Shown one piece after another: positions 14,529 through 51,917 of a DNA stretch of 64,000 nt. The translations under genes were made by a program, and so were the position numbers. The stretch's first letter is position 1, and every line of letters begins with the position of its first letter. Under the pieces are notes generated by a model, which had not been told where the DNA came from, made no database searches, and saw only the letters and a list, made by a program, of their open reading frames with translations. The DNA is from Clostridia bacterium (GTDB lineage: Bacteria > Bacillota > Clostridia > TANB77 > CAG-465): NCBI GenBank assembly GCA_045536565.1, contig JAZSNU010000011.1, positions 49,335 through 113,334 of the forward strand, in the 5' to 3' direction.

Positions 14529-14536
14529 AATAAATT

Positions 14537-14719: not shown

Positions 14720-14748
14720 TTTACATAATATAAGAGATGTGGTATAAT
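14720..14748 (+). promoter_or_regulatory. SigA-type promoter upstream of ORF 14806
   Basis: -35 tttaca at 14720-25, 17-nt spacer, then extended -10 tgg tataat at 14740-48. Confidence 0.45.
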
Positions 14749-14805
14749 ATAAGTATATGAAGTGATATATTAAAAAATGATTATTTATTTTAAGGAGGAA
14801 AATAT

Positions 14806-21054: not shown

Positions 21055-21111
21055 ATTTCTATCAATAAATTTGCATAATTATTTAATAATATTATGAAAG
21101 GGGAATTTACT

Positions 21112-29788: not shown

Positions 29789-29855
29789 TTTTACTAACCA
29801 TGGGGTAAGATTATCTGTTTTTAATATATATAAATGATTTTTAGGAGGTATTTTA

Positions 29856-29970
29856 TATGAAATCATTATTAAGAAAAATAGCAAAAACATATGCTAAATC
29901 AACAACTAATACTTGCTTAGCATGGATGTTCCACGCAAACAAAGCTCCAAGAACTTTAATAAAAAAATAA
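29856..29970 (+). pseudogene. agrD: AgrD-like autoinducing-peptide precursor, reading frame apparently broken in an A6 run
   Basis: The ATG at 29856 follows AGGAGG. As written it reads MKSLLRKNSKNIC-stop. The +1 frame starting at 29872 continues ...IAKTYAKSTTNTCLAWMFHANKAPRTLIKK-stop. One fewer A in agaaaaaat at 29871-79 restores a canonical 37-aa AgrD: an amphipathic leader, the Cys-containing core TCLAWMF, and a charged P-x-x-L tail. Confidence 0.55.
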
Positions 29971-29991
29971 CAAGAATATATATTTAAAATA

Positions 29992-30029
29992 TTAGCAAGC
30001 CTCTAAATTACACAAAGAGGCTTGCTTAA
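29992..30029. terminator. Bidirectional terminator between agrD and agrC
   Basis: ttagcaagcctct...agaggcttgcttaa 13-14-bp inverted repeat. Confidence 0.6.
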
Positions 30030-30031
30030 TG

Positions 30032-31378: not shown

Positions 31379-31399
31379 AATTTATAATTCCTTTCTATA

Positions 31400-32074
31400 T
31401 TAAGTTATATTTCCCATTGGACAAGAGATAGATTCGGTGAAAAACACTTTACTATCTAGTTTGTTAACTTCTGTTATTGCTTCGGTATTAATAATATATG
31501 ATCTATGATTTCTAATAAAAATATCATTAGGTAGTGTTTTATAAATATTATTAAGTGACATAGAGGATTCATAAACACAGTTCCTAGCATGTATATAGGT
31601 TTTATTAAATTTTCTTTCAATAAAGAAAATATCATTTGCCCTAATAGATAGACCTCTTTTTATGTTTATAAATACTTTGTTTTCAGAAGATGAAAATTCT
31701 TCTTTAAACCTATTAAATATAGCTGTAAGTGCAGAAGTTGAAATAGGTTTAAGTAAATAATCAAAAGTTTTACATTTGAAAGATAATAATGAATATTCGT
31801 AATGTGCAGTAAGAAATACTAAATAGAAATTCTTGTTTATTTTTCTTAAATCTGTTGCAAATTCAACACCATTTTTACCACCATTTTGAAAATCCACATC
31901 TAAAAATAATATATCTATATTGTTATTTTTAATTTCATCATAAATTATATTTTGGTTATCCGTTACAGTTGTAATTTCAGCATCTATATCTAGTTCAATT
32001 ATTATTGATTCCATAAGTTTTGCAATGTTTTCGATACTCTTTAAGTTATCATCACATAAAGCAATTTTTAACAT
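31400..32074 (-). CDS. agrA: AgrA-like LytTR-family response regulator
   Basis: N-terminal receiver (MLKIALCDDN...FLDVDF) and a C-terminal LytTR DNA-binding domain. The gene is immediately upstream of agrC on the same strand. Confidence 0.75.
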   Translation of the reverse strand: MLKIALCDDNLKSIENIAKLMESIIIELDIDAEITTVTDNQNIIYDEIKNNNIDILFLDVDFQNGGKNGVEFATDLRKINKNFYLVFLTAHYEYSLLSFKCKTFDYLLKPISTSALTAIFNRFKEEFSSSENKVFINIKRGLSIRANDIFFIERKFNKTYIHARNCVYESSMSLNNIYKTLPNDIFIRNHRSYIINTEAITEVNKLDSKVFFTESISCPMGNIT

Positions 32075-37484: not shown

Positions 37485-38330
37485 ATGTGTAAAGATCAAA
37501 ATAAATATAAACTAAGTGATGAAGAACATGAAAAAAGGTATAAGACGATTGAGAAACGTGTATTTAGGAAAAAAATTAATGTTGATTTTCCAATTGCAGT
37601 TGTGGTAGGTGGTCAACCTGGTTCTGGAAAATCAGTTTTAATAGAACAAGGAATGCTAGAAATTGGAGAAGATAATACCGTTGTTATAAACGGAGATGAA
37701 TATAGGAAGTATCATACTAAATCAAAAGAAATATTACAAAATGATGAATTAGATTATGCGTTTTATACAGATGCAGATGTTAGGGATTGGACTAAATCAT
37801 TGTTTGACAAAGCAATTGATGAAAAATTCAACTTGGTTTTTGAAGGTACAATGCGTACAAAAACGATTTGTGATACATTGAAACGATTAAAGGAAAAAGG
37901 ATTTGAGGTTAGAGTTAAAGCAATGTCAGTTAATGGATTAGAAAGCTATTTATCTACACTTATTAGATATGAAGAACAAAAAAATGCTGACGGACATGGA
38001 AGAATTACTCCTTCAAAATCTCATTCTGATGCATATACAGGAATGCTAGACACATTAGAAGAAATTGAAAAACAAGGATATTTTGATAGTTTAGAGATAA
38101 TTACTCGTGCAGGAGAATGTGTTTATTCTCATACTTCAAACGGAGAAGTAAAGAGTAAGTATAATATGGGGATAAAAGAAACATTAACAAAAAGCAGAGA
38201 GGAACAATTACCAACACTTGAAAAGGTTAAAGAACAATTAGAATGGCTTACTAAATCTAAGGTGAATAGAGGTGAAGAACCTTATGATATAGGTGAAATA
38301 TTAAATATATTAGACGAAAAACAAAAATAG
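37485..38330 (+). CDS. Zeta-toxin-family P-loop kinase
   Basis: Walker A GGQPGSGKS, a catalytic-Asp region INGDEYR and an EGTMRT motif, which match zeta/PezT signatures GGQxGAGKT, xNADxFR and EGTLR. RBS GAGGGTGG is upstream. Confidence 0.65.
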   Translation: MCKDQNKYKLSDEEHEKRYKTIEKRVFRKKINVDFPIAVVVGGQPGSGKSVLIEQGMLEIGEDNTVVINGDEYRKYHTKSKEILQNDELDYAFYTDADVRDWTKSLFDKAIDEKFNLVFEGTMRTKTICDTLKRLKEKGFEVRVKAMSVNGLESYLSTLIRYEEQKNADGHGRITPSKSHSDAYTGMLDTLEEIEKQGYFDSLEIITRAGECVYSHTSNGEVKSKYNMGIKETLTKSREEQLPTLEKVKEQLEWLTKSKVNRGEEPYDIGEILNILDEKQK

Positions 38331-38391
38331 TATGTACAAATTATGTAAATTATGGTATAATATATTAGGAATAATAAATATGGAGGTAATT

Positions 38392-38622
38392 ATGAGTAAT
38401 AACGAATTAATGAGAAGGGATGTTGCAATTGAAATAATTGCAGAAATGATAGCAGATAATTCAATAAAGCTTGAAACTGAAAAAGATGAAAATCACATTA
38501 AAGAATTGGAAAGTAAAATTGAAAAATTTGAGAGTGAAAGAAAAAAAATATATTTAGGTGACAAAGAAACGATAAACTATGTAATTGATGTTTATGGTTC
38601 ATACCTAAAAGAGCAAAGATAA
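38392..38622 (+). CDS. Small acidic coiled-coil protein (77 aa) immediately downstream of the zeta-like kinase
   Basis: I set the start at the ATG at 38392, preceded by GGAGG. It is followed by terminator atagagctact...agtggctctat at 38625-38662. Confidence 0.4.
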   Translation: MSNNELMRRDVAIEIIAEMIADNSIKLETEKDENHIKELESKIEKFESERKKIYLGDKETINYVIDVYGSYLKEQR

Positions 38623-38862
38623 CAAAAATAGAGCTACTATTAATTTAGTGGCTCTATTTTTATACAACAAACTCCATATTGTTTTTGCTTGTCTTGTAGA
38701 TAGAAGGTGTTCAAGGTTTTTAATAAATTATATTTATTTAATTGTTGTATAAATTATATAATAAAATAAATTTTACATAAAAATCTAGAAAATATGAATA
38801 ATGTGTAGAAAAAAATATTTTTTATGATATAATAATATGTATTGAAAAGAAGGGAGCATACA

Positions 38863-40302
38863 ATGAAAAATAATGAATTTGTTAAAGAAATTACAAATAT
38901 AGAAGATGATTTTGCAAAATGGTATACAGACATTGTTATAAAAGCAGATTTAGCAGACTATACAGATGTAAAAGGATTTGTTGCAATTAAACCGTATGGT
39001 TATGCTATTTGGGAAAATATTCAAAAGTACACTGATGAAAAATTCAAAAAAACAGGTGTTAAAAATGTATATTTTCCAGTATTAATACCAGAAAATTTAT
39101 TAAATAAAGAAAAAGAACATGTAGAGGGATTTGCTCCCGAAGTTGCTTGGGTAACAACTGGTGGACAGGAAACTCTTGAAGAGAGATTGTGTATTAGACC
39201 AACATCTGAAACAGTATTTTCTACATTGTATTCAAAATGGCTTAAATCTTGGAGAGATTTACCATTCGTATATAACCAATGGTGTAATGTACTAAGATGG
39301 GAAAAAGAAACAAGACCATTTTTAAGATCAAGAGAATTTTTATGGCAAGAAGGTCATACAATACATGAAACAGCAAAAGAAGCAGAAGATAGGACAATGC
39401 AAATGCTTGATGTATATGCAGATGTTATAGAAAATGTACTTGCAATACCAGTACTTAAAGGTAGAAAAACAGAAAGTGAAAAATTTGCAGGAGCAGTTGA
39501 TACATATACAGTAGAAACATTAATGCATGATGGAAGAGCACTTCAAGCTGGTACATCACATTACTTTGGGCAAAACTTTACAAAACCATTTGATGTTAAA
39601 TTCCAAGGTAGAGAAGGAAAAATGGAATATCCATACCAAACTTCTTGGGGAGTTAGTACTAGATTAATTGGTGCCGTTATAATGGCACATGGAGATAACA
39701 GAGGACTAAAACTTCCACCTAAAATAGCACCAACTCAAATAGTAATAGTACCTATTGCTATGAATAAAGAGGGCGTTTTAGAGAAAGCAACAGAAATATA
39801 TAATGAACTTTTAGAAAAAGATTATAGAGTAGAATTAGATTCAAGAGAACAAGTATCACCAGGATATAAATTTAATGACTGGGAAATGAGAGGAGTACCA
39901 GTAAGAATTGAAATAGGACCAAAAGATATAGAAAATGGTAAATGTGTAGTTGTAAGAAGAGATACAGCAGAAAAAATACCAGTTGAACTAACAGAGTTAA
40001 AAGATAAAATAGGAAGTATACTTGATGATATACAATCAAATATGTTTAATGAATGCAAAATAAGAGTAGAAGAAAAAACAACAGTTGCAACTGATTTAGA
40101 TGAATTTAAAAAGAACTTAGACGAAAACCAAGGTTATGTAAAAACTATGTGGTGTGGAAGCGCTGAATGTGAAGATAAAATTCATGAACTTACAGGTGCA
40201 AAATCTAGATGTATTCCATTTAATCAAGAACATATTTCAGATAAATGTGTTTGTTGCGGTAAAGATGCAGATACAATGATTGTATGGGGTAGACAATATT
40301 AG
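38863..40302 (+). CDS. proS: Prolyl-tRNA synthetase, archaeal/eukaryote-like type (no editing insertion, C-terminal Zn domain)
   Basis: I set the start at the ATG at 38863, preceded by AAGGGAG. Class II motifs are present (FRSREFLWQEGHT, GTSHYFGQNF). The C-terminal CxxC...CxxC domain ends in ...WGRQY with the conserved terminal Tyr. Confidence 0.85.
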   Translation: MKNNEFVKEITNIEDDFAKWYTDIVIKADLADYTDVKGFVAIKPYGYAIWENIQKYTDEKFKKTGVKNVYFPVLIPENLLNKEKEHVEGFAPEVAWVTTGGQETLEERLCIRPTSETVFSTLYSKWLKSWRDLPFVYNQWCNVLRWEKETRPFLRSREFLWQEGHTIHETAKEAEDRTMQMLDVYADVIENVLAIPVLKGRKTESEKFAGAVDTYTVETLMHDGRALQAGTSHYFGQNFTKPFDVKFQGREGKMEYPYQTSWGVSTRLIGAVIMAHGDNRGLKLPPKIAPTQIVIVPIAMNKEGVLEKATEIYNELLEKDYRVELDSREQVSPGYKFNDWEMRGVPVRIEIGPKDIENGKCVVVRRDTAEKIPVELTELKDKIGSILDDIQSNMFNECKIRVEEKTTVATDLDEFKKNLDENQGYVKTMWCGSAECEDKIHELTGAKSRCIPFNQEHISDKCVCCGKDADTMIVWGRQY

Positions 40303-40311
40303 AAATATTTA

Positions 40312-40348
40312 AAATATAGCAGTAATTATTATTGCTATATTTTTTTTA
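40312..40348 (+). terminator. Rho-independent terminator after proS
   Basis: aatatagcagtaat tatta ttgctatatt followed by T8. Confidence 0.7.
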
Positions 40349-40478
40349 CTTTTAATTTAGTTTTAATGTTGTCAAAATATGTCGAAACTTGCTTAAATAT
40401 CTGTTAAATACTTGCAGTATTTTGTGTGTTTTGATATACTTTAAGTATTAGATTAGGAGCGGAATTGGGGGAAATATA

Positions 40479-43400
40479 ATGGAGAATAAATATGGTTTAA
40501 CATTTCCACAAAAAAACATATTACTTGTTGAAGAGTTTTTTGGTAAATCACCAATAAATACCATAGTTGGTATATTTGAAATAAACAAAGAATTTGACAA
40601 AGAAGTATGCGAAAAAGCTGTAAATAAAATGGTAGAAGTAAACGATGCGTTAAGAATAAAAGTATTCAAAGAAAATGATAATACATTTCAATATATAGAA
40701 AAGTATAATTATTTTAATGTTGATTATTTTGATTTAGAAAATGAGAATGCGGAAAAAAGAAAAGAATTAGAAAATGAACTTACTACAAAACCATTTGAAA
40801 TATTAAATAGTCCGTTATATTATTTTGCAATTGTAAAAACAGAAAAAGATAAAGGACATATTTTTGTTAAACTACATCACCTAGTATCTGATGCATGGAC
40901 ATTTGGTAATGTAGCAACTCAGCTTGCTGAATATGTAGATATGTATACAAAAGGTGAAGATAATGAGATACAAAAGCCATCATATCTTGAATTTATATCA
41001 ACAGAAAATGAATATATATCTTCTGAAAAATTTACAAAAGATAAAATGTTTTGGGAAGAATATTTAGAAGGCTTTGAAGAACCAGTAGGTATAAAAGAAA
41101 ACAACAATAAAACATTAATAGATGCTAAAAGATATACTGTAAGATTAGAAGAAAAACTAAATAATGATATAAAAGAATTTTGCAGGAGAAATAGAGTATC
41201 TCCATATACTGTATTTATGAATGCACTAGCTATATATTTACATAGAGTAACTGAAAAATATGATTTTGTAATAGGTACACCAGTACTTAACCGTTCTAAT
41301 TTTAAAGAAAAGAAAATGATGGGAATGTTTGTAAGTACAATGCCTGTTAGATTTAAAATAGACGAAAAAGAAACATTTTTAGAAATGTGTAAAAAATCAA
41401 GCAGCGAAACGATGTCACTTTTCAGACATCAAAAATATCCTTATTCTATAATGCTGCAAGATTTTAGAGAGAAAAATAATGTAAGCAATAATTTATATGA
41501 AGTAATGATATCTTATCAAAATGCTAGAGCAGAGTATTCTGATAATGAAAAATATTCTAGCGATTGGATATTTAGTACCAAGGTACAAGACCAATTTGCA
41601 ATACACATAATGGATATGGATGAAACGGGAGTACTAGAAGTACATTTTGATTATCTAGTAGATTTGTTTGAAGATATAGAAATAGAGTATATTGCAAAAA
41701 GACTGTTTACTATAATTGACGATGGAATAAACAACAACAAAACAATAGAAACAATAGAAATAATGCCAGAAGAAGAAAAAAACAAAATATTATATGAATT
41801 TAATGATACAAAAGTAGATTATCCAAAAGATAAAACTGTTATAGACCTTTTTGAAGAACAAGTACAAAAAACACCAGAAAATATAGCAATAGTGTTTGAG
41901 GGAAAAGAGTTAACATATAGGGAATTAAGTAATTTTATAGATAAAATTGCATATACACTCAAAAAAAATAATATAAATATAGGTGATAATGTTGCACTTG
42001 TTTTAAAAAGAGGTTTTGAGATGATAGCATCTATGTTTGCTATTATGAAAATAGGAGCATGTTATATACCGATTGATGTAGAATTTCCAAAAGATAGGAT
42101 AAAATACATATTAAATGATTGTAATGCTAAATTAATAGTTACAAATATAGATAATAACGAATACGATTTAAAAGTTTTAAACTTAAATTCTGTACAGGAT
42201 GAAATTCAAGAAAAAGTAGAAAATGAATGTGCATTAGAAAATAATATATACATGATATATACATCGGGGTCTACTGGTAATCCGAAAGGGGTAATTATAA
42301 AACAAAAGAATGTCGTGAATTTGTTATATTCAGCGATAGATGCAGTTGAATTGTATGATAATAGGAATACATATTGTGCATTATCAACATATTCTTTTGA
42401 TATTTCTGTGCTAGAAATATTTTTATCTTTATGTTTTGGACATAAATTAATTATTGCTAATGAAAAACAACAAAAAGAACCATTAGAATTACGAAAATTA
42501 ATAAAAGATAATAAATGTGAAATATTTTTTATGACACCAACAAGAATGCAGATATTATTGAGTGGCGAGGATAGTATATATTGTTTAGAATATGCTAAAT
42601 GTATTATGCTAGGAGGGGAAGCATTTCCTAAAAATATATTTGATAGATTAAGTAAAAATCATAAAATAAGAATATATGATGGATATGGACCAACTGAAAT
42701 AACAGTATGGTCATCTGTAAAAAGAATAACAAATGGTGATGATATTAATATAGGAAAACCACTTAATAATACAACTGCATATGTATTAGATAAAAATAAT
42801 AGATTATTACCTATGTATGTAGAAGGTGAATTGTGCATAGGTGGTTTAGGTGTTGCTGAGGGATATTATAACAAAGATACCTTAACAAGCCAAAAGTTCA
42901 TTATGTTCAATGGAAACAAGATATACAAATCTGGTGATTTGGTTAAAATGAATAGTTTGGGAGAATGTGAATTTTTAGGGAGAATTGATTCACAAATTAA
43001 ACTACATGGATTGAGAATAGAATTAGAAGAAATTGAAAAGGAAATAAATTCGTTTGATAATATAATTCATACAGCAGTTATTGTTGATGAGAAGGAGCGA
43101 TTGGTAGCATATTATACATCAGATGAACAAATAAATGAAAAAAAATTAAAAGAATGTATATCAAAAAAATTACCTAAATATATGGTACCAAATTATTTTG
43201 TGAAAGTGGACAGATTTGAAACTAATTCAGTGGGTAAGATAAACAAGAAAATTTTACCAAAATTGGAAATAAAGAGAAATGTATCAGAAAAACCTACTAG
43301 TAAAGTTGAGAAAACAATAGCAAAAGCAATATGTGAAATATTAGACTTGTCTGAAATAGGCATAGATGAAGATTTTTTTGAATTAGGATTAGATTCATTG

Positions 43401-44759
43401 AAAGCTATCGAATTTATAAGTAAATTATCAGTTAAAAATATATCAGTAGCATATATTGATATTTTTAAAAATAGTAGTGTAAAACAATTAGCAAGTTTAG
43501 TAGAAAGTAAAAAAATAGAATACAAAATATTAGATAAAGATGTTGAAATAGAAAAAGTATTAGAAAATAATAAAAAAACAGAAAGTAAATTAAAAACAAA
43601 AGAATTAGGAAATGTTTTATTAACGGGTGCAACTGGATTTTTAGGTTCTCATTTATTAGCAAACATAATAGATACAACAAACAGTATTGTATACTGTTTG
43701 GTTAGAGGAAAAAAAGAAGTTCCACCTGAATTAAGATTGAAATTAGTTTTACAGGAGTATTTTGGAGAAAAATATTCTGATTGTTTAGGAAAAAGAATTA
43801 TAGTAGTAGAAGGTGATATAGAATTACAAAATCTTACTAAGAAACCAGAAAATAGAATAATTTTATTAAATAATATTGACACAGTAATTCATTCTGCTGC
43901 TAATGTTAAACATTTTGGTGATGATGAAGCATTTTATAAGGCTAACATACAAGGTACTAAAAATATAACTGATTTTTGTGTTGAATATAATAAAAAACTT
44001 ATACATATTTCTACATTGAGTGTGTCAGGAAATATTTTAGAGGGTGGACATATTACTCAAAAATATATTAATGAGGAAATAGAATATGATGAAACGAAAT
44101 TAAATGTTGGACAAAATCTAGAAAATATTTATGCTTTCTCTAAATTTAAAGCAGAAGAATATGTAATAAGAAAAATAAAAAATGGATTGAATGCAAAAAT
44201 AATGAGAATAGGAAACATTACAGGAAGAATGAAAGATGGGAAATTCCAAATAAACGCAAATGAAAATGCATTTGTTGGAAGAATAAAATCTATTATTGAT
44301 ATGAGAATGGTACCAAATAATTTATATGATTTTGATATTGAATTTACACCAGTTGATAAATTGTCAGAAGCTATTATTTTGCTAAGTAAAATAGAAAACA
44401 GTAATAATGTATTTCATGTATATAATATAAACCATGTGAAGTTAAATAGATTTATTGAGATATTAAATAGTATTGGATATCATGTAAGTATAGTTGACAA
44501 AGAAAAGTTTGCCGAAAGAATATTAGAAATAAAAAAAATGAATGAATTTAAAACTATAAGTGGTATCGCAATAGATTTGGATGAAAATAACAACTTACAA
44601 TATGAAACAAATATAAAAATAAAATCAGAAAGTACATTAAATATATTGAAGAAGTTAGGATTTAAGTGGCCAGAAATATATGAAGAATATATTTGTAAGT
44701 TTATACATGAATTATGTGTTAGAAATATAATTGATAAGGGGGATAAAGATGAAATTTAA
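40479..44759 (+). CDS. Single-module nonribosomal peptide synthetase: condensation (starter-type) - adenylation - PCP - terminal thioester reductase (C-A-T-R)
   Basis: C domain: LTFPQKNILL, HHLVSDAWT (HHxxxDx). A domain: LTYRELSNFIDKIA (A1), YTSGSTGNPKGV (A3), YDGYGPTE (A5), GELCIGGLGVAEGY (A6), YKSGDL and GRIDSQIKLHGLRIE (A7/A8), LPKYMVPNYF (A10). PCP: LGLDSLKAIE. R domain: LLTGATGFLGSHLL Rossmann and YAFSKFKAE (YxxxK). RBS GGGGGAAAT is upstream. Confidence 0.85.
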   Translation: MENKYGLTFPQKNILLVEEFFGKSPINTIVGIFEINKEFDKEVCEKAVNKMVEVNDALRIKVFKENDNTFQYIEKYNYFNVDYFDLENENAEKRKELENELTTKPFEILNSPLYYFAIVKTEKDKGHIFVKLHHLVSDAWTFGNVATQLAEYVDMYTKGEDNEIQKPSYLEFISTENEYISSEKFTKDKMFWEEYLEGFEEPVGIKENNNKTLIDAKRYTVRLEEKLNNDIKEFCRRNRVSPYTVFMNALAIYLHRVTEKYDFVIGTPVLNRSNFKEKKMMGMFVSTMPVRFKIDEKETFLEMCKKSSSETMSLFRHQKYPYSIMLQDFREKNNVSNNLYEVMISYQNARAEYSDNEKYSSDWIFSTKVQDQFAIHIMDMDETGVLEVHFDYLVDLFEDIEIEYIAKRLFTIIDDGINNNKTIETIEIMPEEEKNKILYEFNDTKVDYPKDKTVIDLFEEQVQKTPENIAIVFEGKELTYRELSNFIDKIAYTLKKNNINIGDNVALVLKRGFEMIASMFAIMKIGACYIPIDVEFPKDRIKYILNDCNAKLIVTNIDNNEYDLKVLNLNSVQDEIQEKVENECALENNIYMIYTSGSTGNPKGVIIKQKNVVNLLYSAIDAVELYDNRNTYCALSTYSFDISVLEIFLSLCFGHKLIIANEKQQKEPLELRKLIKDNKCEIFFMTPTRMQILLSGEDSIYCLEYAKCIMLGGEAFPKNIFDRLSKNHKIRIYDGYGPTEITVWSSVKRITNGDDINIGKPLNNTTAYVLDKNNRLLPMYVEGELCIGGLGVAEGYYNKDTLTSQKFIMFNGNKIYKSGDLVKMNSLGECEFLGRIDSQIKLHGLRIELEEIEKEINSFDNIIHTAVIVDEKERLVAYYTSDEQINEKKLKECISKKLPKYMVPNYFVKVDRFETNSVGKINKKILPKLEIKRNVSEKPTSKVEKTIAKAICEILDLSEIGIDEDFFELGLDSLKAIEFISKLSVKNISVAYIDIFKNSSVKQLASLVESKKIEYKILDKDVEIEKVLENNKKTESKLKTKELGNVLLTGATGFLGSHLLANIIDTTNSIVYCLVRGKKEVPPELRLKLVLQEYFGEKYSDCLGKRIIVVEGDIELQNLTKKPENRIILLNNIDTVIHSAANVKHFGDDEAFYKANIQGTKNITDFCVEYNKKLIHISTLSVSGNILEGGHITQKYINEEIEYDETKLNVGQNLENIYAFSKFKAEEYVIRKIKNGLNAKIMRIGNITGRMKDGKFQINANENAFVGRIKSIIDMRMVPNNLYDFDIEFTPVDKLSEAIILLSKIENSNNVFHVYNINHVKLNRFIEILNSIGYHVSIVDKEKFAERILEIKKMNEFKTISGIAIDLDENNNLQYETNIKIKSESTLNILKKLGFKWPEIYEEYICKFIHELCVRNIIDKGDKDEI

Positions 44760-46473
44760 TCTAATGGCAGGGATTTTATTATCAATATTAACAGTAATAT
44801 TATTGGTAATTATTAGTATGAAAAAAATAAAGGGGAAAAATGAGATACATTATAGATTTAATAGATTTTTACTTTTATTAGCAATTCCATTTATATCTTT
44901 ACCTTTGCAAATAATTTTTGAGGATATTATAAATCCAATATATTTTGATTATGTTACATATATATTTACATTTTATGGACCAATAGAATTATTATTTGCA
45001 ACAAGATTATATAAAGATAGTAAAGCGGATAATAAAAAACTTAAATTTTTATATATAATTTCAACCGTACTACTAATATTGTTATGGACTAATGATTTAC
45101 ATTATAGTTTTTATGAAGTATATTCTACAAAATTTAGTGAAACAATATACGGCCCTATATTTTATATTGCAACTATATATTGCTATATAATTATCATACT
45201 ATCTATGATAATAACATTAATATCTTCAATAAGGCGTTCGGGATTTTTCTCAGCACAATCACTTATAATTATTTTTGGGGTATTAGTACCGGTAGTAGGT
45301 AACATATTGGGAGTTACAAAAATTATAAATATGACAATTTATATAACACCTATTTTACTAGCAACAACTGCAATTTGTTTTTATATTGCGATAGTAAAAA
45401 TGAAAGCACTAAATGTTATACCAGTTGCTGTAAAAACAATAATGGATACAATGACAGATTCGTTTATTGTAATAAGTAAAGATGGAACAATAGCAGATAT
45501 AAATAGAACATGTATAGAAAAGTTTGCACCTTTAATGGAACTTAAACAAAATGATAATTTATATGAAAAGTTAGAAGGAAGAAAAACAGTAAAACTTGCT
45601 GATATAAAAGCGTTAGTTAAAGAGGCAAACGATAAAAAAGGAACTGTAACATCTGAATTTCATGTTGTAAAAGGTGATTATGATAAGTATTTTGAAATAG
45701 ATGTTCAACCTATAAAAGCAAAGTCTGGTAACGAATATGTAGCATCATTACTATTAATTAGAGATATAACACAAGCAAAAAGAGATATGGAAATAATGAC
45801 TAAAAATGAAAATCTAGTAATACTTGGAGAGCTTGCAGGAGGGGTGGCACATGATATAAATACACCTATTGCGGCAATCAAAAATGGAATAATGATGCTT
45901 AAAGATACCGTCGCTACTGATAATGAAAAGATGTTACTTACTAGAATGGATAGCTGTGCGGATAAGATAATTAATCTTGTAAACAGTATGAGAAATCAAA
46001 TAAGAAACATTGGTAGTGATGAAAAAACAGAAGTTAATATTTCTTCTGTTATAAACGATACATTGATGATTGTTCATAATGAAACGATGAAGAAAGGTGT
46101 TAAAATTAACCTTAATATAAAAGATGAATTAAAGGTAATGGGAAATGCTACTAAACTAGGACAAGTAATAACTAATTTAATCATGAATGCTATACAAGCA
46201 TATGAAAATAATCCTGGTATGATAGATGTAGATGTGTATAAATCTGATAAAAACCAAGCTATGATTATTGTAGAGGATTATGCAGGTGGTATACCAGAAC
46301 ATATAAGACCACACATATTTAAAAATATATTAACAACAAAAGGTGTATCAGGTACTGGTTTTGGTCTATATCTAGCATATTCAGTAATAAAAGGTGCATT
46401 TGGTGGAGATATGCATTTTGAAACCGAAACTGGAAAAGGTACAAAGTTTGTTATAAGTATACCGCTTAAGTAG
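44749..46473 (+). CDS. Orphan sensor histidine kinase (multi-TM sensor, PAS, HisKA, HATPase)
   Basis: I set the start at the ATG at 44749 (GGGGG RBS), which overlaps the NRPS stop by 11 nt. It has about 7 TM helices, a PAS-like segment, an H-box LAGGVAHDINTPIAAI, and N/G boxes NLIMNAIQA and GTGFGLYL. No response regulator is adjacent. Confidence 0.75.
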   Translation: MKFNLMAGILLSILTVILLVIISMKKIKGKNEIHYRFNRFLLLLAIPFISLPLQIIFEDIINPIYFDYVTYIFTFYGPIELLFATRLYKDSKADNKKLKFLYIISTVLLILLWTNDLHYSFYEVYSTKFSETIYGPIFYIATIYCYIIIILSMIITLISSIRRSGFFSAQSLIIIFGVLVPVVGNILGVTKIINMTIYITPILLATTAICFYIAIVKMKALNVIPVAVKTIMDTMTDSFIVISKDGTIADINRTCIEKFAPLMELKQNDNLYEKLEGRKTVKLADIKALVKEANDKKGTVTSEFHVVKGDYDKYFEIDVQPIKAKSGNEYVASLLLIRDITQAKRDMEIMTKNENLVILGELAGGVAHDINTPIAAIKNGIMMLKDTVATDNEKMLLTRMDSCADKIINLVNSMRNQIRNIGSDEKTEVNISSVINDTLMIVHNETMKKGVKINLNIKDELKVMGNATKLGQVITNLIMNAIQAYENNPGMIDVDVYKSDKNQAMIIVEDYAGGIPEHIRPHIFKNILTTKGVSGTGFGLYLAYSVIKGAFGGDMHFETETGKGTKFVISIPLK

Positions 46474-46501
46474 TAGTACATAAAGTTGGAAGGATATAAA
46501 A

Positions 46502-47248
46502 ATGAAACTTTTTTTAACTAGCTCCATAGGAGCAACAAAACATGAGAATGGAAAAAGAGTTCCTGCAAGAATGGATAATAGAAATTTATTTGTGGATAAT
46601 TTAAAAAAGGCAATTCAGGGAACAAATAAATTAGTATATATATCGGGTAATCCTGACTATAACACAAATGAAAAAGTAAAAATATGGTTTAATAATACAA
46701 TTAAATCATTAGAATACGAGAATATAAGATTTAAAGAAAATATATTTGTGGATTATAAAAATTCTAATAATATTTCTGATATTATAAAAGGGGCAGATAT
46801 AATTTTCTTATCGGGAGGAGCGCTACCAGTTCAAAATAATTTTTTTAATGAAATTAATTTAAAAGAATATATAAAAGATTATGATGGTATAATTGTAGCA
46901 CAAAGCGCCGGTTCAATGAATTGTGCTGAAAATGTTTATATTTGCCCAGAAACCTTAGAAGAAGTAAATAATATAAATTTCATTAGGGAAGCAAAAGGTT
47001 TAGGGCTTACCAATATAAATATAATTCCACATTATAATAGCAATAAAGAATTTATGTTTGGCGCAAAGAGGTTTTATCAAGATATTATATATCCAGATAC
47101 TTTCAAGTTTTGTATATATATATTAACGGACGGTTCATATATATATATAAACGAAAGAGAAACTGTTGTATATGGTGAGTGTTATGTTTTTTATAGAGGT
47201 ACTATTAAAAATATATGTTCAAATGGTAACGATATAATATTAGATTAG
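46502..47248 (+). CDS. Peptidase S51 (dipeptidase E/cyanophycinase-like) family protein
   Basis: IIFLSGGA and the nucleophile region VAQSAGSM match the S51 Ser-His-Glu peptidase fold. Terminator 47255-47290 follows. Confidence 0.55.
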   Translation: MKLFLTSSIGATKHENGKRVPARMDNRNLFVDNLKKAIQGTNKLVYISGNPDYNTNEKVKIWFNNTIKSLEYENIRFKENIFVDYKNSNNISDIIKGADIIFLSGGALPVQNNFFNEINLKEYIKDYDGIIVAQSAGSMNCAENVYICPETLEEVNNINFIREAKGLGLTNINIIPHYNSNKEFMFGAKRFYQDIIYPDTFKFCIYILTDGSYIYINERETVVYGECYVFYRGTIKNICSNGNDIILD

Positions 47249-47317: not shown

Positions 47318-47905
47318 ATGAAAGAAGTAGAAATAACATTAAAAGTAAAGGATAGTTTGGATGAATGTATTAAAAAATTAAAAAATCAAAATTTTAAAGT
47401 TATAAGAAATAGTGTTGTTGATGATTTGTATATGACACAAAATAAAAATATGTTAAATAAAGATAATATTGATGATATATTAAAAACCTGTGTGCTTATT
47501 AGATACCTAAACGCAAACGGTAAAGAATTTAAAAAGATAACATATAAAAATAAAGTATATAATAATGGTAATATAGTTTCTGAGAAAAAAATAAATGTAG
47601 ATTGTTTAGATTTAATAAAGGCAAGGGAATTGTTTGAAGCATTAGGTTTTGAAGAATTAGTTAGAGTAAAATATATAGTAACAGTTCTTTCTGATGGTAA
47701 TAAAGAATTCGCTTTTCAAGAGGTTGAAAATTTAGGCCTTTTAGTAGAATATGAAAGCACTAAAAATATGGATAATTGTACCGATGAAGAAATGCTTAAG
47801 GAAAAAGATAATATGATAGAAGAAATTATAAAAACTGGCATATATGTTGATGAAAAGTCGGATGTAAAGAAAGCATATGAGTTAATAAAAGACAGTATGT
47901 TATAG
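47318..47905 (+). CDS. CYTH-domain protein (CyaB/thiamine-triphosphatase-like)
   Basis: The N-terminus MKEVEITLKVKD matches the CYTH ExExK signature. It is about 195 aa. Confidence 0.5.
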   Translation: MKEVEITLKVKDSLDECIKKLKNQNFKVIRNSVVDDLYMTQNKNMLNKDNIDDILKTCVLIRYLNANGKEFKKITYKNKVYNNGNIVSEKKINVDCLDLIKARELFEALGFEELVRVKYIVTVLSDGNKEFAFQEVENLGLLVEYESTKNMDNCTDEEMLKEKDNMIEEIIKTGIYVDEKSDVKKAYELIKDSML

Positions 47906-48086
47906 TAAAGATAATGCTAATTAAATATTAAAATATATTTACATAACATTTGACATTTTAACATAATAGTAGTATAATTAACTTCCATTAAAAAAAACAT
48001 CTTATACAAATTTGTAAAGGAGGATAGTAAAAAGCAGAGGTGAGTAAGACTCGCTTTAAAATATATAATTATTAAGGAGGAAGATT

Positions 48087-48680: not shown

Positions 48681-49997
48681 ATGGCAGATGTAAGAAAAGT
48701 AAAAGCAAGAACATTACCAGGTTTTATGGAGCTTATGCCTGATGAACAAATATTATTTAATAAAATGTATGATAGTATAAGAAAATCATATGAAAAATTT
48801 GGGTTTATTCCACTTGATACACCAATTTTGGAATCATCAGAAGTTCTTCTTGTCAAAGCAGGAGGGGAAACTGAAAAACAAATATATAGATTTACAAAAG
48901 GTGATACAGACATGTCAATGAGATTTGATTTAACTGTACCACTAGCAAAATATGTTGCAATGCATGCAGGTGAACTTACTTTTCCTTTTAGAAGATATCA
49001 GATGAGTAAAGTTTTCAGAGGAGAAAGACCACAAAAAGGAAGATATAGAGAATTTTATCAATGTGATATAGATATAATTGGAGACACAGAGTTAAACATA
49101 TTAAATGATGCTGAGATACCTTCAATAATATATACAACTTTTAAAGATTTAGGATTTGAAAGATTTGTAATAAGAATAAATAATAGAAGAGTATTAAATG
49201 GATTTTTTGCAAGTTTAGAACTTGGAGATAATGTAGCAGATATATTAAGAATAATTGATAAACTTGAAAAAATAGGTGAAGAAGCGGTAGTAGAATGTTT
49301 AAAAGAATTAAATATAGATGAACAAAAAATATTAAGTATAATGTCTTTTATGCAAATAGACGGAACACCTGAGAATGTAATATCATCATTAAGAAAGTTA
49401 AATATATCTAATGAGGATTTTGCACAAGGCGTAGATGAATTAGAACAAGTAGCAGCAGGCGTTGTTGCATTTGGAATACCAGAAAGTAACTTTAAAATAG
49501 ATCTAAAAATAGCAAGAGGATTAGATTATTATACTGGCACAGTATATGAAACTATGCTTACAGATTACCCAGGACTTGGAAGTGTATGCTCTGGTGGTAG
49601 ATACGATAACTTAGCAGAATATTATACAAATAAAAAACTACCAGGTGTTGGAATATCAATTGGGCTTTCTAGACTATATGCATATTTGACAAGTGAAAAA
49701 GTAATTGCACCAGAAGAAGGAAGTACTGCAAAAGTATTAGTTGTTCCTATGGTAGAAGATATGTCAGAAGTATTTAAAATAGCAAATGAAATAAGAAAGA
49801 AAGATATTAATACTGAGGTTTGCTATAATAGAAAAAATATGAAGAGCATGTTAAATTATGCTAATAAGCTAAAAATACCTTATGTTGTATTTGTAGGTGA
49901 AGATGAAATAACTAACAATGTATTAACACTTAAAAATATGAATACAGGAAATCAAGAACAAATAAAAATATATGAAATACAAAAATATATAATATAA
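48681..49997 (+). CDS. hisS: Histidyl-tRNA synthetase
   Basis: Class II motif 2 FRGERPQKGRYREFYQCD (compare FRYERPQ.GRYRQF.Q), motif 3 GGRYDNL, and a C-terminal anticodon-binding domain. 438 aa. Confidence 0.8.
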   Translation: MADVRKVKARTLPGFMELMPDEQILFNKMYDSIRKSYEKFGFIPLDTPILESSEVLLVKAGGETEKQIYRFTKGDTDMSMRFDLTVPLAKYVAMHAGELTFPFRRYQMSKVFRGERPQKGRYREFYQCDIDIIGDTELNILNDAEIPSIIYTTFKDLGFERFVIRINNRRVLNGFFASLELGDNVADILRIIDKLEKIGEEAVVECLKELNIDEQKILSIMSFMQIDGTPENVISSLRKLNISNEDFAQGVDELEQVAAGVVAFGIPESNFKIDLKIARGLDYYTGTVYETMLTDYPGLGSVCSGGRYDNLAEYYTNKKLPGVGISIGLSRLYAYLTSEKVIAPEEGSTAKVLVVPMVEDMSEVFKIANEIRKKDINTEVCYNRKNMKSMLNYANKLKIPYVVFVGEDEITNNVLTLKNMNTGNQEQIKIYEIQKYII

Positions 49998-50528: not shown

Positions 50529-51917
50529 ATGAAAGAAGTAACAATGCAAGATTTAGTAGCACTATGTAAAAATAGAGGATATATATTCCCAGGTTCAGAA
50601 ATATATGGAGGATTATCTAATACTTGGGATTATGGACCACTAGGAGTAGAATTTAAAAATAATATAAAAAGAGCTTGGTGGAAAAAGTTTGTAGATGAAT
50701 CAAGACACAATGTAGGACTTGATGCAGCTATTCTTATGAATCCACAAACTTGGGTAGCATCAGGACACGTAGGAGGATTCTCTGATCCACTTATGGATTG
50801 TAAAGCATGTAAAACAAGACATAGAGCAGACAAATTAATTGAAGATTATTTACAAGAAAAAGGTACACCAGAGGTTGTTGATGGTTGGTCAGATGAACAA
50901 ATGGTGAACTTCATAAAAGAAAATGGTGTAGTTTGTCCAGATTGCGGAAAACAAGATTTTACAGATATTAGAAAATTTAATCTAATGTTTAAAACATTCC
51001 AAGGAGTAACAGAAGATTCAAAATCTGAAATATATTTAAGACCAGAAACAGCACAAGGTATATTTGTTAACTACAAAAATGTATTAAGAACTACAAGAAG
51101 TAAAATGCCTATGGGTATAGCTCAAATAGGTAAATCATTCAGAAATGAGATAACACCTGGTAACTTTATATTCCGTGTTCGTGAATTTGAACAAATGGAA
51201 CTTGAATTTTTCTGTGAACCAGGAACAGATATAGAATGGTTTAATCATTGGAAAGAATATTGTAAAAACTTCTTAGTAAGTTTAGGTATGGATGAAGAAA
51301 AACTAAGAATGAGAGATCATTCACCAGAAGAACTTTCTTTTTACAGTAAATGTACAACTGATATAGAATTTAAATTCCCATTTGGCTTTGGTGAATTATG
51401 GGGAATCGCGGATAGAACAGATTATGATTTAAGTCAACATATGAAACATTCAGGAGAAGATTTTACATACACAGATCCAATGGATCCTTCTAAAAAATAT
51501 ATACCATACTGTATAGAGCCTTCTGTTGGTGTTGAAAGACTTGTTTTAGCGTTCTTATCTAGTGCATATAAAGAAGAGGAAGTATCAGAAGGAGATACAA
51601 GGGTTGTATTAAAATTACATCCTTTCTTAGCACCAATAAAAGTAGCAGTACTTCCACTTTCTAAAAAATTATCTGATAAGGCAAACGAAGTTTATGAAAA
51701 ACTAGTTAAAAAATATAGATGTGAATATGATGAAGCTGGAAGCATCGGTAAAAGATATAGAAGACAAGATGAAATAGGAACACCATATTGTGTAACAGTA
51801 GATTTTGATACACTAGAAGATGAATGTGTAACAGTAAGAGATAGAGATACAATGGAGCAAGTTAGAATTAAAATTGATGAACTTGAAAAATTCATTGATG
51901 ATAAAATACAGTTCTAA
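50529..51917 (+). CDS. glyQS: Glycyl-tRNA synthetase (dimeric alpha2 GlyQS type)
   Basis: 462 aa. The N-terminus ...[28 protein letters not shown] is characteristic of GlyQS. Class II motifs are present, and the C-terminus is an anticodon-binding domain. Confidence 0.85.

Follow-up and report, generated by a model that had tools for sequence, protein, structure and literature searches.

Co-variation of a reductase-terminated non-ribosomal peptide synthetase and its adjoining seven-helix histidine kinase in gut Clostridia: a candidate signal synthase and receptor

Introduction

Non-ribosomal peptide synthetases (NRPSs) of gut Clostridia that make peptide aldehydes and pyrazinones were reportedly described by Guo et al. 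in Cell in 2017, and ruminopeptin is said to have been treated by Schneider and Balskus in 2018. According to PMC10979478 and PMC8210680, gut clostridial enzymes of the order C-A-T-C-A-T-R (condensation, adenylation, thiolation and reductase domains) yield protease-inhibiting pyrazinones or peptide aldehydes, some products of the family bearing an N-acyl tail (PMC8210680); PMC12327764 also treats these enzymes. Pyrazinones have frequently been considered as signals still lacking an identified receptor (PMC10979478). The NRPS described here, found in a 64-kb window (the whole stretch of DNA analysed), resembles them in its source (gut or rumen Clostridia), in its first-position C domain and in its terminal reductase, and the kinship with mostly two-module clostridial enzymes asserted by the earlier note on this DNA is real, as 112 of the best 120 homologues have ~2400-2490 aa and 7 have ~1425-1446 aa. 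It differs in having one module instead of two, and its proposed native role is signalling, not inhibition of host proteases. In the literature searched, no link between the published clusters and a histidine kinase was found.

In the agr and comQXPA systems, the signal-production genes adjoin a multi-pass kinase sensor, and one hypervariable block is set between conserved flanks, with discrete alleles that do not follow host phylogeny. The same block pattern is seen at the NRPS-kinase locus, which differs from agr (AgrB-AgrD-AgrC-AgrA) and the Bacillus comQXPA system (PMC3673130, PMC4008528) in having neither AgrB/D or ComQ/X homology nor a response regulator in the operon. The signal is a ribosomal peptide in those systems, whereas here it would be non-ribosomal and probably lipophilic. 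In Vibrio (CqsA/CqsS) and Legionella (LqsA/LqsS), an autoinducer synthase gene adjoins the gene of a multi-pass sensor kinase; as proposed for the present locus, a cytoplasmic enzyme makes a hydrophobic signal and the adjacent gene encodes a polytopic kinase that binds it within the membrane, but the synthase is a PLP-dependent acyl-CoA transferase and not an NRPS, and the kinases are hybrid, feeding known phosphorelays. We know of no cassette-type allelic polymorphism of such extent in these two systems.

Regarding the enzyme itself, the myxochelin synthetase MxcG has the same C-A-T-R order, and its NCBIfam model can be aligned along the full length (residues 3-1415), but with 510 bits against a cutoff of 2300. 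MxcG acylates lysine with aryl groups brought by separate carrier proteins; aryl-carrier genes were not found in the window, and MxcG is not known to have a kinase partner. The best NCBIfam model is that of the aureusimine synthetase AusA (782 bits, also far under its cutoff of 2500), which shares reductive aldehyde release but has another domain order, A-T-C-A-T-R. AusA and A-T-R enzymes of the PvfC type give pyrazinones or pyrazines that derive from amino aldehydes and have been proposed to act in signalling; none of these systems is known to include a dedicated receptor gene that co-varies with the synthetase. Clostridial orphan sporulation kinases, like the kinase in the window, are membrane-bound, contain PAS domains, lack a cognate regulator gene and occur in spore-forming species, the window also encoding YqfD and YabQ; unlike it, none of those studied has been reported as coupled to a biosynthetic enzyme (PMC6343041, PMC10263361, bioRxiv 10.1101/2021.11.18.469199). 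A link of the window's kinase to Spo0A is hinted at by TGTCGAA boxes upstream of some loci and by nothing more.

Organization of the Locus

The positions of the features are collected in Table 1. The single intact C-A-T-R module claimed in the earlier note is borne out, its domains and motifs lying where they had been placed, and release of the product by such a module should be reductive. Core motifs A1-A10 are complete in the A domain, where alignment to GrsA (1AMU) finds the equivalents of both Lys517, whose absence the note had taken as the mark of an inactive module, and Asp235. The C domain likewise gives no sign of the degenerate cluster considered there: HHxxxD is kept (18/18 loci), and no other part of the enzyme is so well conserved (70-85% identity within its lineage). 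Its best solved relatives are of the elongation type (bacitracin synthase 3, 121 bits; TycC, 95), the RzmA starter domain (73 bits) and CDA-C1 (30) falling behind. The R domain scores 194 bits against TIGR01746 (cutoff 213), and among solved structures its nearest relative is 6VTJ (208 bits), labelled as a non-ribosomal peptide synthetase in its deposition, with the AusA R domain next (149 bits).

Table 1. Features of the NRPS-kinase locus and its surroundings (positions in the window)
Feature	Position	Strand	Basis
proS, ProRS of archaeal/eukaryote-like type; neighbour outside the unit	38863..40302	+	TIGR00408 equivalog
TGTCGAA, Spo0A-box-like heptamer upstream of the NRPS promoter; lead only	40380..40386	+	exact match
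Sigma-A-type promoter: -35 TTGCAG, 17-nt spacer, TG-extended -10 TATACT	40412..40440	+	conserved among relatives
Single-module NRPS, C-A-T-R, 1426 aa	40479..44759	+	Pfam, translation, NCBIfam
N-terminal C domain, conserved backbone	40482..41792	+	Pfam Condensation aa 2-438, E 4e-79; HHLVSDA aa 133-139
A domain, 10-residue code DILFMGGVWK	41850..43238	+	Pfam AMP-binding aa 458-797, AMP-binding_C aa 851-920; code via GrsA/1AMU alignment
Exchangeable specificity cassette: A from motif A1, T, R, junction, seven kinase TM helices	41900..45400 (about)	+	sliding identity, per-domain matrices, Mantel tests
T (carrier) domain	43314..43499	+	Pfam PP-binding aa 946-1007; Ser in LGLDSL aa 969-974
Terminal NAD(P)H thioester reductase (R)	43611..44714	+	Pfam NAD_binding_4 aa 1048-1299, E 3e-46; GATGFLG aa 1050-1056, Thr in HISTLSV, YAFSK aa 1218-1222
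Orphan histidine kinase, 574 aa	44749..46473	+	sequence, Pfam; overlaps NRPS stop by 11 nt
7TM sensor domain, aa 1-218; hypervariable, discrete types	44749..45402	+	Pfam HisKA_7TM, hydropathy
PAS, DHp and catalytic ATPase (CA) domains, conserved backbone	45403..46470	+	alignment to ThkA, PDB 3A0R
S51-family peptidase; lineage-specific neighbour outside the unit	46502..47248	+	Pfam, 31 bits

The longest frame of the kinase begins with TTG at 44731, and the ATG at 44749, preceded by AAGGGGGA, produces the overlap with the NRPS stop (TAA, 44757-44759) that had been noticed before. As had also been said, the protein is a 7TM-PAS kinase with no partner regulator beside it. Its Pfam matches are HisKA_7TM, HisKA and HATPase_c; the PAS domain has no Pfam call in the window's kinase, residues ~228-345 aligning with the PAS domain of ThkA (PDB 3A0R), with which the whole PAS-DHp-CA part aligns over its full length, and homologues give weak PAS_4/PAS_9 matches. 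The H-box GGVAHDINTPI (His368) is near-invariant across 18 loci as GGVAHD[I/V]NTPI, and all 18 have the G2 box GTGFGLYLA unchanged; the PAS, DHp and CA part is 85-99% identical within lineage A. By the positive-inside rule the 7TM domain is N-out/C-in, and its outer loops are very short, which suits an intramembrane lipophilic ligand; the polar and aromatic residues PIYFDY and WTNDLH are invariant across types. The response regulator nearest to the kinase is of the LytTR type (31400-32074) and is part of an unremarkable agr-type locus (29162-32074) distinct from the NRPS-kinase pair.

The coupling of kinase and NRPS is real: in the window and in 21/21 related loci examined, the kinase directly follows an R-terminated NRPS at a spacing of -11 to +14 nt (10/17 junctions overlap by 11 nt or 1 nt), and the pairing extends to two-module relatives of 33-37% identity. 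Compared across these loci, the conserved unit is the NRPS and kinase gene pair of gut Clostridia.

The neighbouring genes are another matter, and the cluster boundaries first drawn around proS and the S51 peptidase were wrong, as both are lineage-specific and missing in syntenic relatives. The archaeal-type proS is genuine (617 bits against a TIGR00408 cutoff of 437, with a ProRS-C_1 domain, hence a true class-I-type ProRS), and its own terminator can be read as an AT-rich hairpin with a T-run at ~40314-40348, which, with fewer than 3 G-C pairs, escapes a consensus scan. Together with a zeta toxin gene (37485-38330), proS lies between NUDIX and NRPS genes only in the window and upstream of the NRPS in 0 of the relatives examined; in syntenic relatives (L015-L018, L001 and L021) the order is NUDIX-NRPS-kinase, without zeta toxin, proS or S51. 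The S51 assignment also holds (Pfam cutoff 23.9; SAGS motif present), without a match in NCBIfam. The gene starts 28 nt past the kinase stop and has a counterpart after the kinase in L014 and L003, a GNAT gene standing there in L015, and no counterpart was found 3' of the kinase elsewhere among the loci examined.

Upstream of the NRPS, the layout CTTGCAGT/CTTGAAGT-N17-TGATATACT recurs 40-65 nt 5' of the start in the window, L001, L002, L004, L015, L019 and L021, and DNA homology to the relatives begins 5' of the promoter, at 40331-40411. Perfect TGTCGAA heptamers occur at varying positions within 260 nt 5' of the NRPS start in 5/12 loci, against a background of 6 per 64 kb with both strands counted.

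Mosaic Structure and Sensor Types

Sliding protein and DNA identity, per-domain identity matrices and Mantel tests were used to map the exchange. Among lineage-A loci, C domains are 70-85% identical while A domains reach merely 33-42%, and the window compared with L001, L002, L004 and L003 shows the same high values for C (70-85%), PAS (76-92%) and core (66-94%), against low ones for A (33-42%), T (36-39%), R (37-46%) and 7TM (40-44%). Relative to L005 the pattern is inverse (C 48%, A 65%, R 68%, 7TM 78%, PAS 51%). The 5' edge of the variable block is the A1 motif LTYRELS at 41910-41930. At its 3' edge, the DNA of the close relative L014 is 50-67% (about 60%) identical to the window and then 93-100% from 45,410 on, the switch falling at kinase codon 220, so that backgrounds almost alike can bear different alleles. 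The same three cassette types are found in each of two diverged lineages, between which C is 48-53% and core 59-63% identical. On these identity profiles, the backbone consists of the C domain and of the kinase's PAS and catalytic core, and the block from A1 to TM7 is a swappable cassette. Between L025 and L026, of a more distant clade, the mosaic is less clean, with the first A domain replaced and the 7TM only moderately diverged (46-56%); this was counted against a signal-receptor reading.

For 18 NRPS-kinase pairs (153 comparisons, using the last A domain), 7TM identity correlates with that of A (r=0.86), R (0.74) and T (0.72), each with a Mantel p<=5e-5, and not significantly with C (0.15) or PAS+core (0.10), whereas C and PAS+core correlate with each other (r=0.85). 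When types are defined by at least 60% 7TM identity, A and R identity is raised in 16/16 same-type comparisons (16/153 of all), and none of the remaining 137 exceeds 53% for A, 58% for R or 51% for 7TM. Values of 7TM identity are 64-85% within types and below 52% between them, with nothing intermediate; 113 kinases fall into 37 types, and even where PAS+core is 90-100% identical, 7TM identity is below 50% in 113/165 pairs. Judged by this co-variation, A-T-R and the 7TM sensor form one exchangeable cassette, a point that the earlier note had missed.

The A codes behave likewise, being uniform per 7TM type and distinct between types, with A domains 56-86% identical overall within a type: DILFMGGVWK (window, L005), DAFFLGITFK (P0039, L002, L023), DVFWFGCAFK (P0083, L001, L015, L019), DALFMGLVVK (L004, L021, L022) and, in the second module, DTFLCGVVIK (P0068, P0073, L024). 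In this last, two-module type, the first-module codes differ among the three loci although their sensors are 71-75% identical, an observation also counted against the signal-receptor reading. A prediction set beforehand, that a related A domain would be its neighbour, held for P0224, which has the nearest 7TM outside the window's type: it adjoins the code DILNMGGVWK, one residue off the window's, in an A domain 50% identical to the window's (36-39% for other types), with a kinase core of 52% identity.

Discussion

A signal and its receptor would be expected to be exchanged in just this way, the substrate-choosing half of an enzyme moving together with a membrane sensor, and as far as we found in the literature such a pattern has no earlier description for a non-ribosomal product. 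By analogy with agr and comQXP, we propose with slightly better than even confidence (about 0.55) that the gene pair would be a two-gene operon of signal synthase and receptor, making a non-ribosomal autoinducer with pherotype-like alleles. The NRPS would activate one hydrophobic amino acid, as its code suggests, the first-position C domain would probably N-acylate it, drawing on an acyl thioester of primary metabolism, and reductive release by the R domain would yield an aldehyde or an alcohol. This lipophilic product would leave the cell and may be recognized inside the membrane by the co-translated kinase through its 7TM domain, the NRPS product thus being the predicted ligand. From the invariant PAS-DHp-CA core the signal would pass to a conserved partner whose gene lies elsewhere; by analogy with other orphan kinases of Clostridia, this might be Spo0A. 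The product-fixing A-T-R part (A-T-C-A-T-R in two-module alleles) and the sensor would be inherited and exchanged together between conserved flanks. Counted against this proposal are the lack of a response regulator in the operon, the elongation type of the C domain's best solved relatives, the paralogous 7TM kinase of L023 away from any NRPS, and that no PPTase, ACP or acyl-CoA ligase was found within the 64 kb window.

A, T, R and 7TM are contiguous, and between alleles so far diverged homologous recombination can start only in their conserved flanks, so that inheritance as a block might by itself produce the co-variation without a functional link; the co-transcribed kinase may then regulate the NRPS or sense another membrane or environmental cue. 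The breakpoints at the A1 motif and the PAS start, where conservation resumes, are those expected from flank homology alone; the R domain, not expected to set specificity, diverges as much as A; and kinase sensor domains generally evolve faster than cores. We nevertheless hold this unlikely, as it leaves unexplained why the sensor and the substrate-selecting half of the cytoplasmic enzyme should each persist as old, discrete types that are conserved internally, with the gap in 7TM identity described above, identical A codes within types, a pairing kept down to 33% NRPS identity and a prediction that held for P0224 at 52% core identity. Co-evolution of an interface, in which the 7TM domain docks the NRPS at the membrane (e.g., at its T-R end) or helps in product export, would profit from translational coupling, which would favour complex assembly, and from the co-variation of T and R with 7TM; we consider it quite improbable, since the strongest 7TM correlate is the A domain with its code, which faces the substrate and not a partner, and the 7TM forms one protein with a full PAS-DHp-CA kinase in which every catalytic box is conserved, which speaks for signalling rather than transport.

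The product could instead be primarily a protease inhibitor directed at host or competitor proteases, with the kinase only timing production or sensing self-damage, or, without N-acylation, a free amino aldehyde that dimerises to a pyrazine. Architecture and kinship do fit the C-A-T-C-A-T-R enzymes summarised in PMC10979478 and PMC8210680, and the aldehyde-forming R domain of AusA is the closest among characterised enzymes, but dozens of sensor types matched to A codes are not predicted by such a role, which we regard as improbable, although inhibitor and signal are not mutually exclusive. Least credible, to the point of being very doubtful, is the four-gene cluster of NRPS, kinase, S51 and proS, with proS as a resistance paralogue: the genes do adjoin in the window, yet proS, zeta toxin and S51 are missing from the locus in syntenic relatives, proS scores as a normal housekeeping equivalog with its own terminator-like hairpin, and the code DILFMGGVWK is not a proline code, so that the comparative data already contradict this model. 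Returning to the proposed pair of signal synthase and receptor, cassette exchange, if true, would give many mutually distinct signal and receptor types, or pherotypes, in these Clostridia, as in agrBDC and comQXP.

The NRPS and the Kinase as a Conserved Unit

In every related locus read, a HisKA_7TM kinase is found directly 3' of a reductase-ending NRPS. These loci comprise single-module relatives (L001, L002, L004, L005, L015-L019, L021-L023, L028), two-module relatives (L003, L024) and distant two-module enzymes, 33-37% identical to the window protein (L025-L027). The junction between both genes ranges from an 11-nt overlap to a 14-nt gap in 17 out of 17 junctions measured. Local synteny does not account for the pairing, since the genomic surroundings of the loci are of at least four different kinds. 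Upstream of the NRPS lies a single promoter of the sigma-A type with an extended -10, conserved in related loci, and both genes are presumably co-transcribed. Scanning metagenome contigs with the kinase alignment retrieved only distant, unrelated kinases (22-29% identity) and no usable loci, and a protein search with the C domain alone gave truncated fragments only, with no further NRPS-kinase pairs.

Regarding the kinase, its start is most plausibly the ATG at 44749, which is preceded by AAGGGGGA; with this start, the 11-nt overlap across the NRPS stop codon described in an earlier note is reproduced. The proS, one-module NRPS and S51 peptidase genes of the same note are likewise present, all on the plus strand as the kinase is. 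The kinase matches PF16927 (HisKA_7TM), PF00512 and PF02518, and its PAS-DHp-CA region aligns end to end with ThkA (PDB 3A0R), PAS domain included. All kinase boxes are intact, with the phospho-acceptor His368 in GGVAHDINTPI and both N and G2 boxes present. In the 7TM domain, the outer loops are very short and polar and aromatic residues are conserved (PIYFDY, WTNDLH), features that would fit the binding of a lipophilic ligand inside the membrane.

No Response_reg gene adjoins the kinase in any locus examined. The kinase core is 98.9% identical in protein to P0122, the homologue from locus L014, with 93-100% DNA identity along the same stretch, and this very strong constraint implies that its partner, encoded at another site, is conserved as well. 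Spo0A is a common target of clostridial orphan kinases (PMC6343041, PMC10263361), and in five of the 12 loci (the window, L002, L003, L015 and L021) the 260 nt before the NRPS start contain a perfect TGTCGAA, the Spo0A-box consensus. Its position relative to the promoter varies by locus, and its background in the window is 6 per 64 kb, about 1 per 10.7 kb. Together with the kinase lacking a partner regulator and the spore-forming host, these boxes hint at phosphotransfer from the kinase to Spo0A, which may be taken only as a lead.

Besides its NRPS-linked kinase, locus L023 encodes another HisKA_7TM-PAS kinase (13508-15214, in the stretch 10327-15214), which shares 42% identity with the first. 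In place of an NRPS, a pair of radical SAM genes (one of them with SPASM), a GNAT gene and an ORF of 78 aa lie upstream of it. Sensors of the HisKA_7TM family may also be partnered with makers of other small molecules or of peptides. In locus L020 (3-5501), the NRPS frame is broken into products of 800 and 425 aa, followed by an intact kinase, possibly an assembly error or a synthase decay with the receptor retained (a "listener only" strain).

Features of the window, in window numbering (NRPS domains in amino acid residues)
Feature	Position	Strand	Remarks
serS	8141-9421	-	class II aminoacyl-tRNA synthetase
Radical SAM/SPASM enzyme	21094-22443		449 aa
agr-type locus	29162-32074
AgrB	29162-29788	+
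AgrD (candidate)	29857-29970		37 aa, MKSLLRKIAKTYAKSTTNTCLAWMFHANKAPRTLIKK
AgrC-like GHKL kinase	30032-31378	-	strand opposite to AgrB
LytTR response regulator	31400-32074	-	strand opposite to AgrB
Zeta-toxin family gene	37485-38330
ORF	38332-38622		96 aa, no family match
proS	38863-40302	+	class II aminoacyl-tRNA synthetase
TGTCGAA	40380-40386		Spo0A-box consensus
NRPS promoter	40412-40440		sigma-A type, extended -10
NRPS	40479-44759	+	1426 aa
Condensation	aa 2-438		Pfam, E 4e-79
AMP-binding	aa 458-797, 851-920		Pfam
PP-binding	aa 946-1007		Pfam
NAD_binding_4	aa 1048-1299		Pfam
Kinase	44749-46473	+	574 aa
S51-family peptidase	46502-47248	+	PF03575, 31 bits against a gathering score of 23.9, partial profile; QSAGS motif (Ser nucleophile)
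ORF	47318-47905		195 aa; weak class IV adenylate cyclase/CYTH match, TIGR00318, 42.6 bits, below cutoff 57.95
Promoter TTGACA-17-TATAAT	47950-47978		perfect; upstream of GreA-like gene
hisS	48681-49997		class II aminoacyl-tRNA synthetase
glyQS	50529-51917		class II aminoacyl-tRNA synthetase

Domain Organization and Family Membership of the NRPS

The reading of the NRPS as one intact C-A-T-R module stands, with its Pfam domains and every catalytic motif present. The C domain keeps the catalytic HHxxxD (HHLVSDA, residues 133-139), the A-domain cores A1-A10 were all located, and the carrier Ser for phosphopantetheine is found in LGLDSL (969-974). The R domain is of the SDR type, with GATGFLG, the Thr of HISTLSV and YAFSK (Thr/Tyr/Lys triad), and aligns with 6VTJ and the AusA R domain. 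The ten-residue A-domain codes were taken by alignment to GrsA, its sequence being checked against 1AMU; in the window code, DILFMGGVWK, the equivalents of Asp235 and Lys517 are both kept at positions 1 and 10, so that the loss of Lys517 considered in the earlier note does not apply. A degenerate or inactive module is rejected, since no catalytic motif is damaged and purifying selection on the domains is evident. The 120 best NRPS homologues have 41 different codes in the first module and 38 in the second, and Asp235 and Lys517 are kept in all of them.

DILFMGGVWK resembles the glycine-type family DILQxGxxWK, from which its pocket differs by the replacement of Gln by Phe at position 278 and of Leu/Met by Gly at position 322, opening the latter. 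The substrate can be called only a hydrophobic side chain, as predicted from the code.

The C domain is the first in line, starting at residue 2, with no NRPS or ACP gene upstream. Compared with solved structures, it scores 121 bits to bacitracin synthase 3, 95 to TycC, 73 to the starter C of RzmA and 30 to the starter C of CDA-C1, and its identity to the internal C2 domains of its two-module relatives is no more than 22-26%. No PPTase, ACP or acyl-CoA ligase was detected with Pfam among the ORFs of at least 100 aa across the 64-kb window.

The domain order is that of MxcG and the release chemistry that of AusA, but the enzyme falls under the cutoffs of both models: NF038078 (MxcG, NCBIfam) gives 510 bits against a curated equivalog cutoff of 2300, and NF047350 (AusA, NCBIfam) gives 782 against 2500, with only the second half of the model aligned. 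The R domain scores 194 bits with TIGR01746, slightly under the cutoff of 213. The gut clostridial dipeptide-aldehyde family is defined by two modules ending in R, whereas the window NRPS has one. It nests among two-module relatives, its C-A-T region being 60% identical to module 1 of P0002 (the two-module NRPS of L003), while its T and R domains are best matched by their terminal T and R. Judged from its sequence, the window enzyme adds a new single-module member, or variant, to the reductase-terminated NRPSs of Clostridia.

An Exchangeable Cassette on a Conserved Backbone

The identity to related loci is not uniform along both genes, as an exchangeable cassette (A domain from A1, T, R, gene junction and kinase 7TM domain) is flanked by a conserved backbone formed by the C domain and the kinase PAS and catalytic core (PAS+core).

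Identity to the window by domain
Domain	L001, L002, L004, L003	L005
C	70-85%	48%
A	33-42%	65%
T	36-39%	55%
R	37-46%	68%
7TM	40-44%	78%
PAS	76-92%	51%
Kinase core	66-94%	65%

According to sliding windows and blastn, identity changes at about 41,900-41,930 (5' breakpoint), at the A-domain motif A1 (LTYRELS), and again at about 45,400 (3' breakpoint), at KALNVIPVA in the end of TM7. The DNA of L014 is 50-67% identical to the window up to 45,400, then 93-100% across 45,410-46,850, which makes L014 a very close relative whose cassette is an entirely different one. The 113 full-length kinase homologues fall into 37 7TM types (clusters of similar sensor domains) and 33 PAS+core groups; their 7TM identity is bimodally distributed, and it falls below 50% in 113 of the 165 pairs whose PAS+core are 90-100% identical. 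The backbone group of the window carries at least eight of the 37 7TM types, and three cassette types are common to two diverged backbone lineages (C 48-53% and core 59-63% identical between them). In a more distant clade, the mosaic is less clean. The cassette structure of the NRPS-kinase loci can be considered real with high confidence.

One-module and two-module cassettes are both hosted by one backbone lineage. P0002 is on the backbone of the window (C 85% and core 93% identical), yet it has two modules (A-T-C-A-T-R), so that an exchange of cassette turns an amino-acid product scaffold into a dipeptide one or the reverse.

Co-Variation of Synthetase Specificity and Sensor

Mantel tests were applied to 18 NRPS-kinase pairs (153 comparisons), some taken from DNA loci and others inferred by matching NRPS and kinase matches on equal-sized contigs, a pairing that the results bear out. 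The 7TM domain co-varies with the last A domain (r = 0.86), R (r = 0.74) and T (r = 0.72), all with p ≤ 5e-5, compared to r = 0.15 with C (p = 0.03) and r = 0.10 with PAS+core (not significant). The C domain, in turn, co-varies with PAS+core (r = 0.85, p ≤ 5e-5). The identity of A, T and R is raised in 16 out of 16 comparisons within a 7TM type and in 0 out of 137 others.

The A-domain code is the same within each 7TM type and different between types: DILFMGGVWK in the window and L005; DAFFLGITFK in P0039, L002 and L023; DVFWFGCAFK in P0083, L001, L015 and L019; DALFMGLVVK in L004, L021 and L022; and, in the second module, DTFLCGVVIK in P0068, P0073 and L024. Within one two-module type, sensors 71-75% identical go with different codes in the first module. 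P0224 is a kinase whose 7TM domain is the nearest to that of the window outside its own type (51-57%, compared to about 40%), with a core only 52% identical. A related A domain was predicted for it beforehand, and the linked NRPS is single-module, with the code DILNMGGVWK, one residue different from the window, and an A domain 50% identical to it, compared to 36-39% for other types.

Genomic Neighborhood, proS and the S51 Peptidase

The window has a low GC content (24-30%) and comes from low-GC (about 26%) Clostridia, with relatives among gut, colon or rumen MAGs. Its context is of housekeeping and sporulation genes (yqfD-ybeY-dgkA-cdd, hisS-glyQS and era-recO). Loci L015-L018, L001 and L021 are syntenic with it (cdd-DUF3298-DnaJ-NUDIX-NRPS-kinase, then glyQS), and in L015-L018 and L001 the genes 3' of the kinase include greA and hisS as well. 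However, the zeta toxin gene, proS and the S51 gene are all missing from this position in the six syntenic loci, and only L014 and L003 share with the window an S51 gene 3' of the kinase, a GNAT gene taking that place in L015.

The earlier note had grouped S51 and proS with the NRPS and raised the idea of a resistance paralogue for the latter, but neither has support, since the syntenic relatives lack both genes and proS scores as an ordinary ProRS equivalog with NCBIfam. A hairpin with a T-run is visible 3' of proS and is accepted from sequence only as its own terminator, as a consensus terminator scan made no call. Consequently, proS and S51 are lineage-specific neighbors, and a tailoring or signal-degrading role of S51 was rejected as a conserved part of the system. 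The S51 peptidase has no match in NCBIfam.

In the window only, the zeta-toxin family gene, a 96-aa ORF and proS stand between NUDIX and NRPS, which are directly adjacent in the syntenic relatives, sometimes with a small ASCH gene between them. The stretch 37485-40302 looks like a small insertion bringing in an aminoacyl-tRNA synthetase gene. There are four class II aminoacyl-tRNA synthetase genes in the 64 kb (serS, proS, hisS and glyQS), none with a T-box leader at the Rfam gathering threshold, and no T-box or other riboswitch was found near proS or the NRPS, tRNA-Trp being the sole Rfam match of the window. The 195-aa ORF lies 3' of S51. Elsewhere in the window, the radical SAM/SPASM enzyme is of the kind that matures ribosomal peptides, with no convincing precursor ORF in the 190 nt upstream. 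The agr-type quorum-sensing locus is an ordinary one, and with it the organism has a peptide pheromone system of its own some 10 kb away from the NRPS and its kinase.

A Putative Signal-Receptor Pair

Taken together, the NRPS and the kinase are somewhat favored to form a signal-receptor pair, with a probability of roughly 55%. The NRPS product would be the ligand of the 7TM domain, binding as a lipophilic molecule within the membrane, and the cassette types would be pherotypes, while the kinase core would signal to its conserved partner, possibly Spo0A. The product is likely an N-acylated amino aldehyde or alcohol, because the enzyme opens with an intact C domain, more conserved than any of its other parts, and N-acyl tails occur on some products of the related clostridial NRPS family (PMC8210680); a free amino aldehyde dimerizing to a pyrazine is the alternative.

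The co-variation statistics could also be yielded by block inheritance alone, as the co-varying segments are contiguous and alleles this diverged would confine recombination to the flanks. Nevertheless, linkage alone poorly explains the discreteness and age of the types, their identical A codes, the correct prediction for P0224 and a pairing that persists even where the NRPSs are only 33% identical.

Adjacency, one hypervariable block and alleles spanning lineages are the pattern of the agr and comQXP loci. As in those loci, the signal-making gene here adjoins a polytopic sensor kinase, the signal-specificity determinants and the sensor domain lie in one hypervariable block with conserved flanks on both sides, and discrete old alleles are common to several lineages. 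However, agrBDCA and comQXPA include a cognate response regulator, which the NRPS-kinase loci lack, and the synthase is an NRPS without homology to AgrB/AgrD or ComQ/ComX, so the likeness is of organization and evolutionary pattern only. The agr and comQXP systems have been summarized elsewhere (PMC3673130, PMC4008528). The new element is a pherotype-type synthase/receptor cassette whose synthase is an NRPS.

In the literature searched, which is incomplete, no NRPS was found described as coupled to a sensor kinase that co-varies with it, nor a dipeptide aldehyde together with a histidine kinase; HisKA_7TM appeared in archaeal signaling only, and NRPS, quorum sensing and pherotypes gave nothing relevant. 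Given that incompleteness, the lack of a prior description is absence of evidence.

The native function of the reductase-terminated NRPS products of gut Clostridia (peptide aldehydes, pyrazinones) is debated, and we know of no receptor for them. Receptors of pyrazinone signals are hard to find (PMC10979478). A sensor co-varying with the synthetase specificity code is a concrete receptor candidate, and the loci supply natural matched and mismatched NRPS-kinase pairs for experiments. NRPS diversification here proceeds by an exchanged unit that reaches beyond the NRPS gene and by which one backbone can change from a one-module to a two-module product or the reverse.

More tentatively, and with less confidence than in the pair itself, a new class of Gram-positive signaling can be proposed, where NRPS-made (N-acyl) amino or dipeptide aldehydes or alcohols would act as autoinducers read by co-encoded 7TM orphan kinases, with dozens of private "dialects" arising by exchange of A-T-R and sensor cassettes and possibly feeding Spo0A. 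If true, this would be a non-ribosomal counterpart to the agr/comQXP pherotype paradigm and would provide the first receptor identified for the peptide-aldehyde/pyrazinone chemical class, as well as orthogonal small-molecule/kinase pairs for synthetic biology. It would also suggest that gut and rumen Clostridia communicate privately at the level of strains, with bacterial communication as the native role of this widespread gut clostridial NRPS family.
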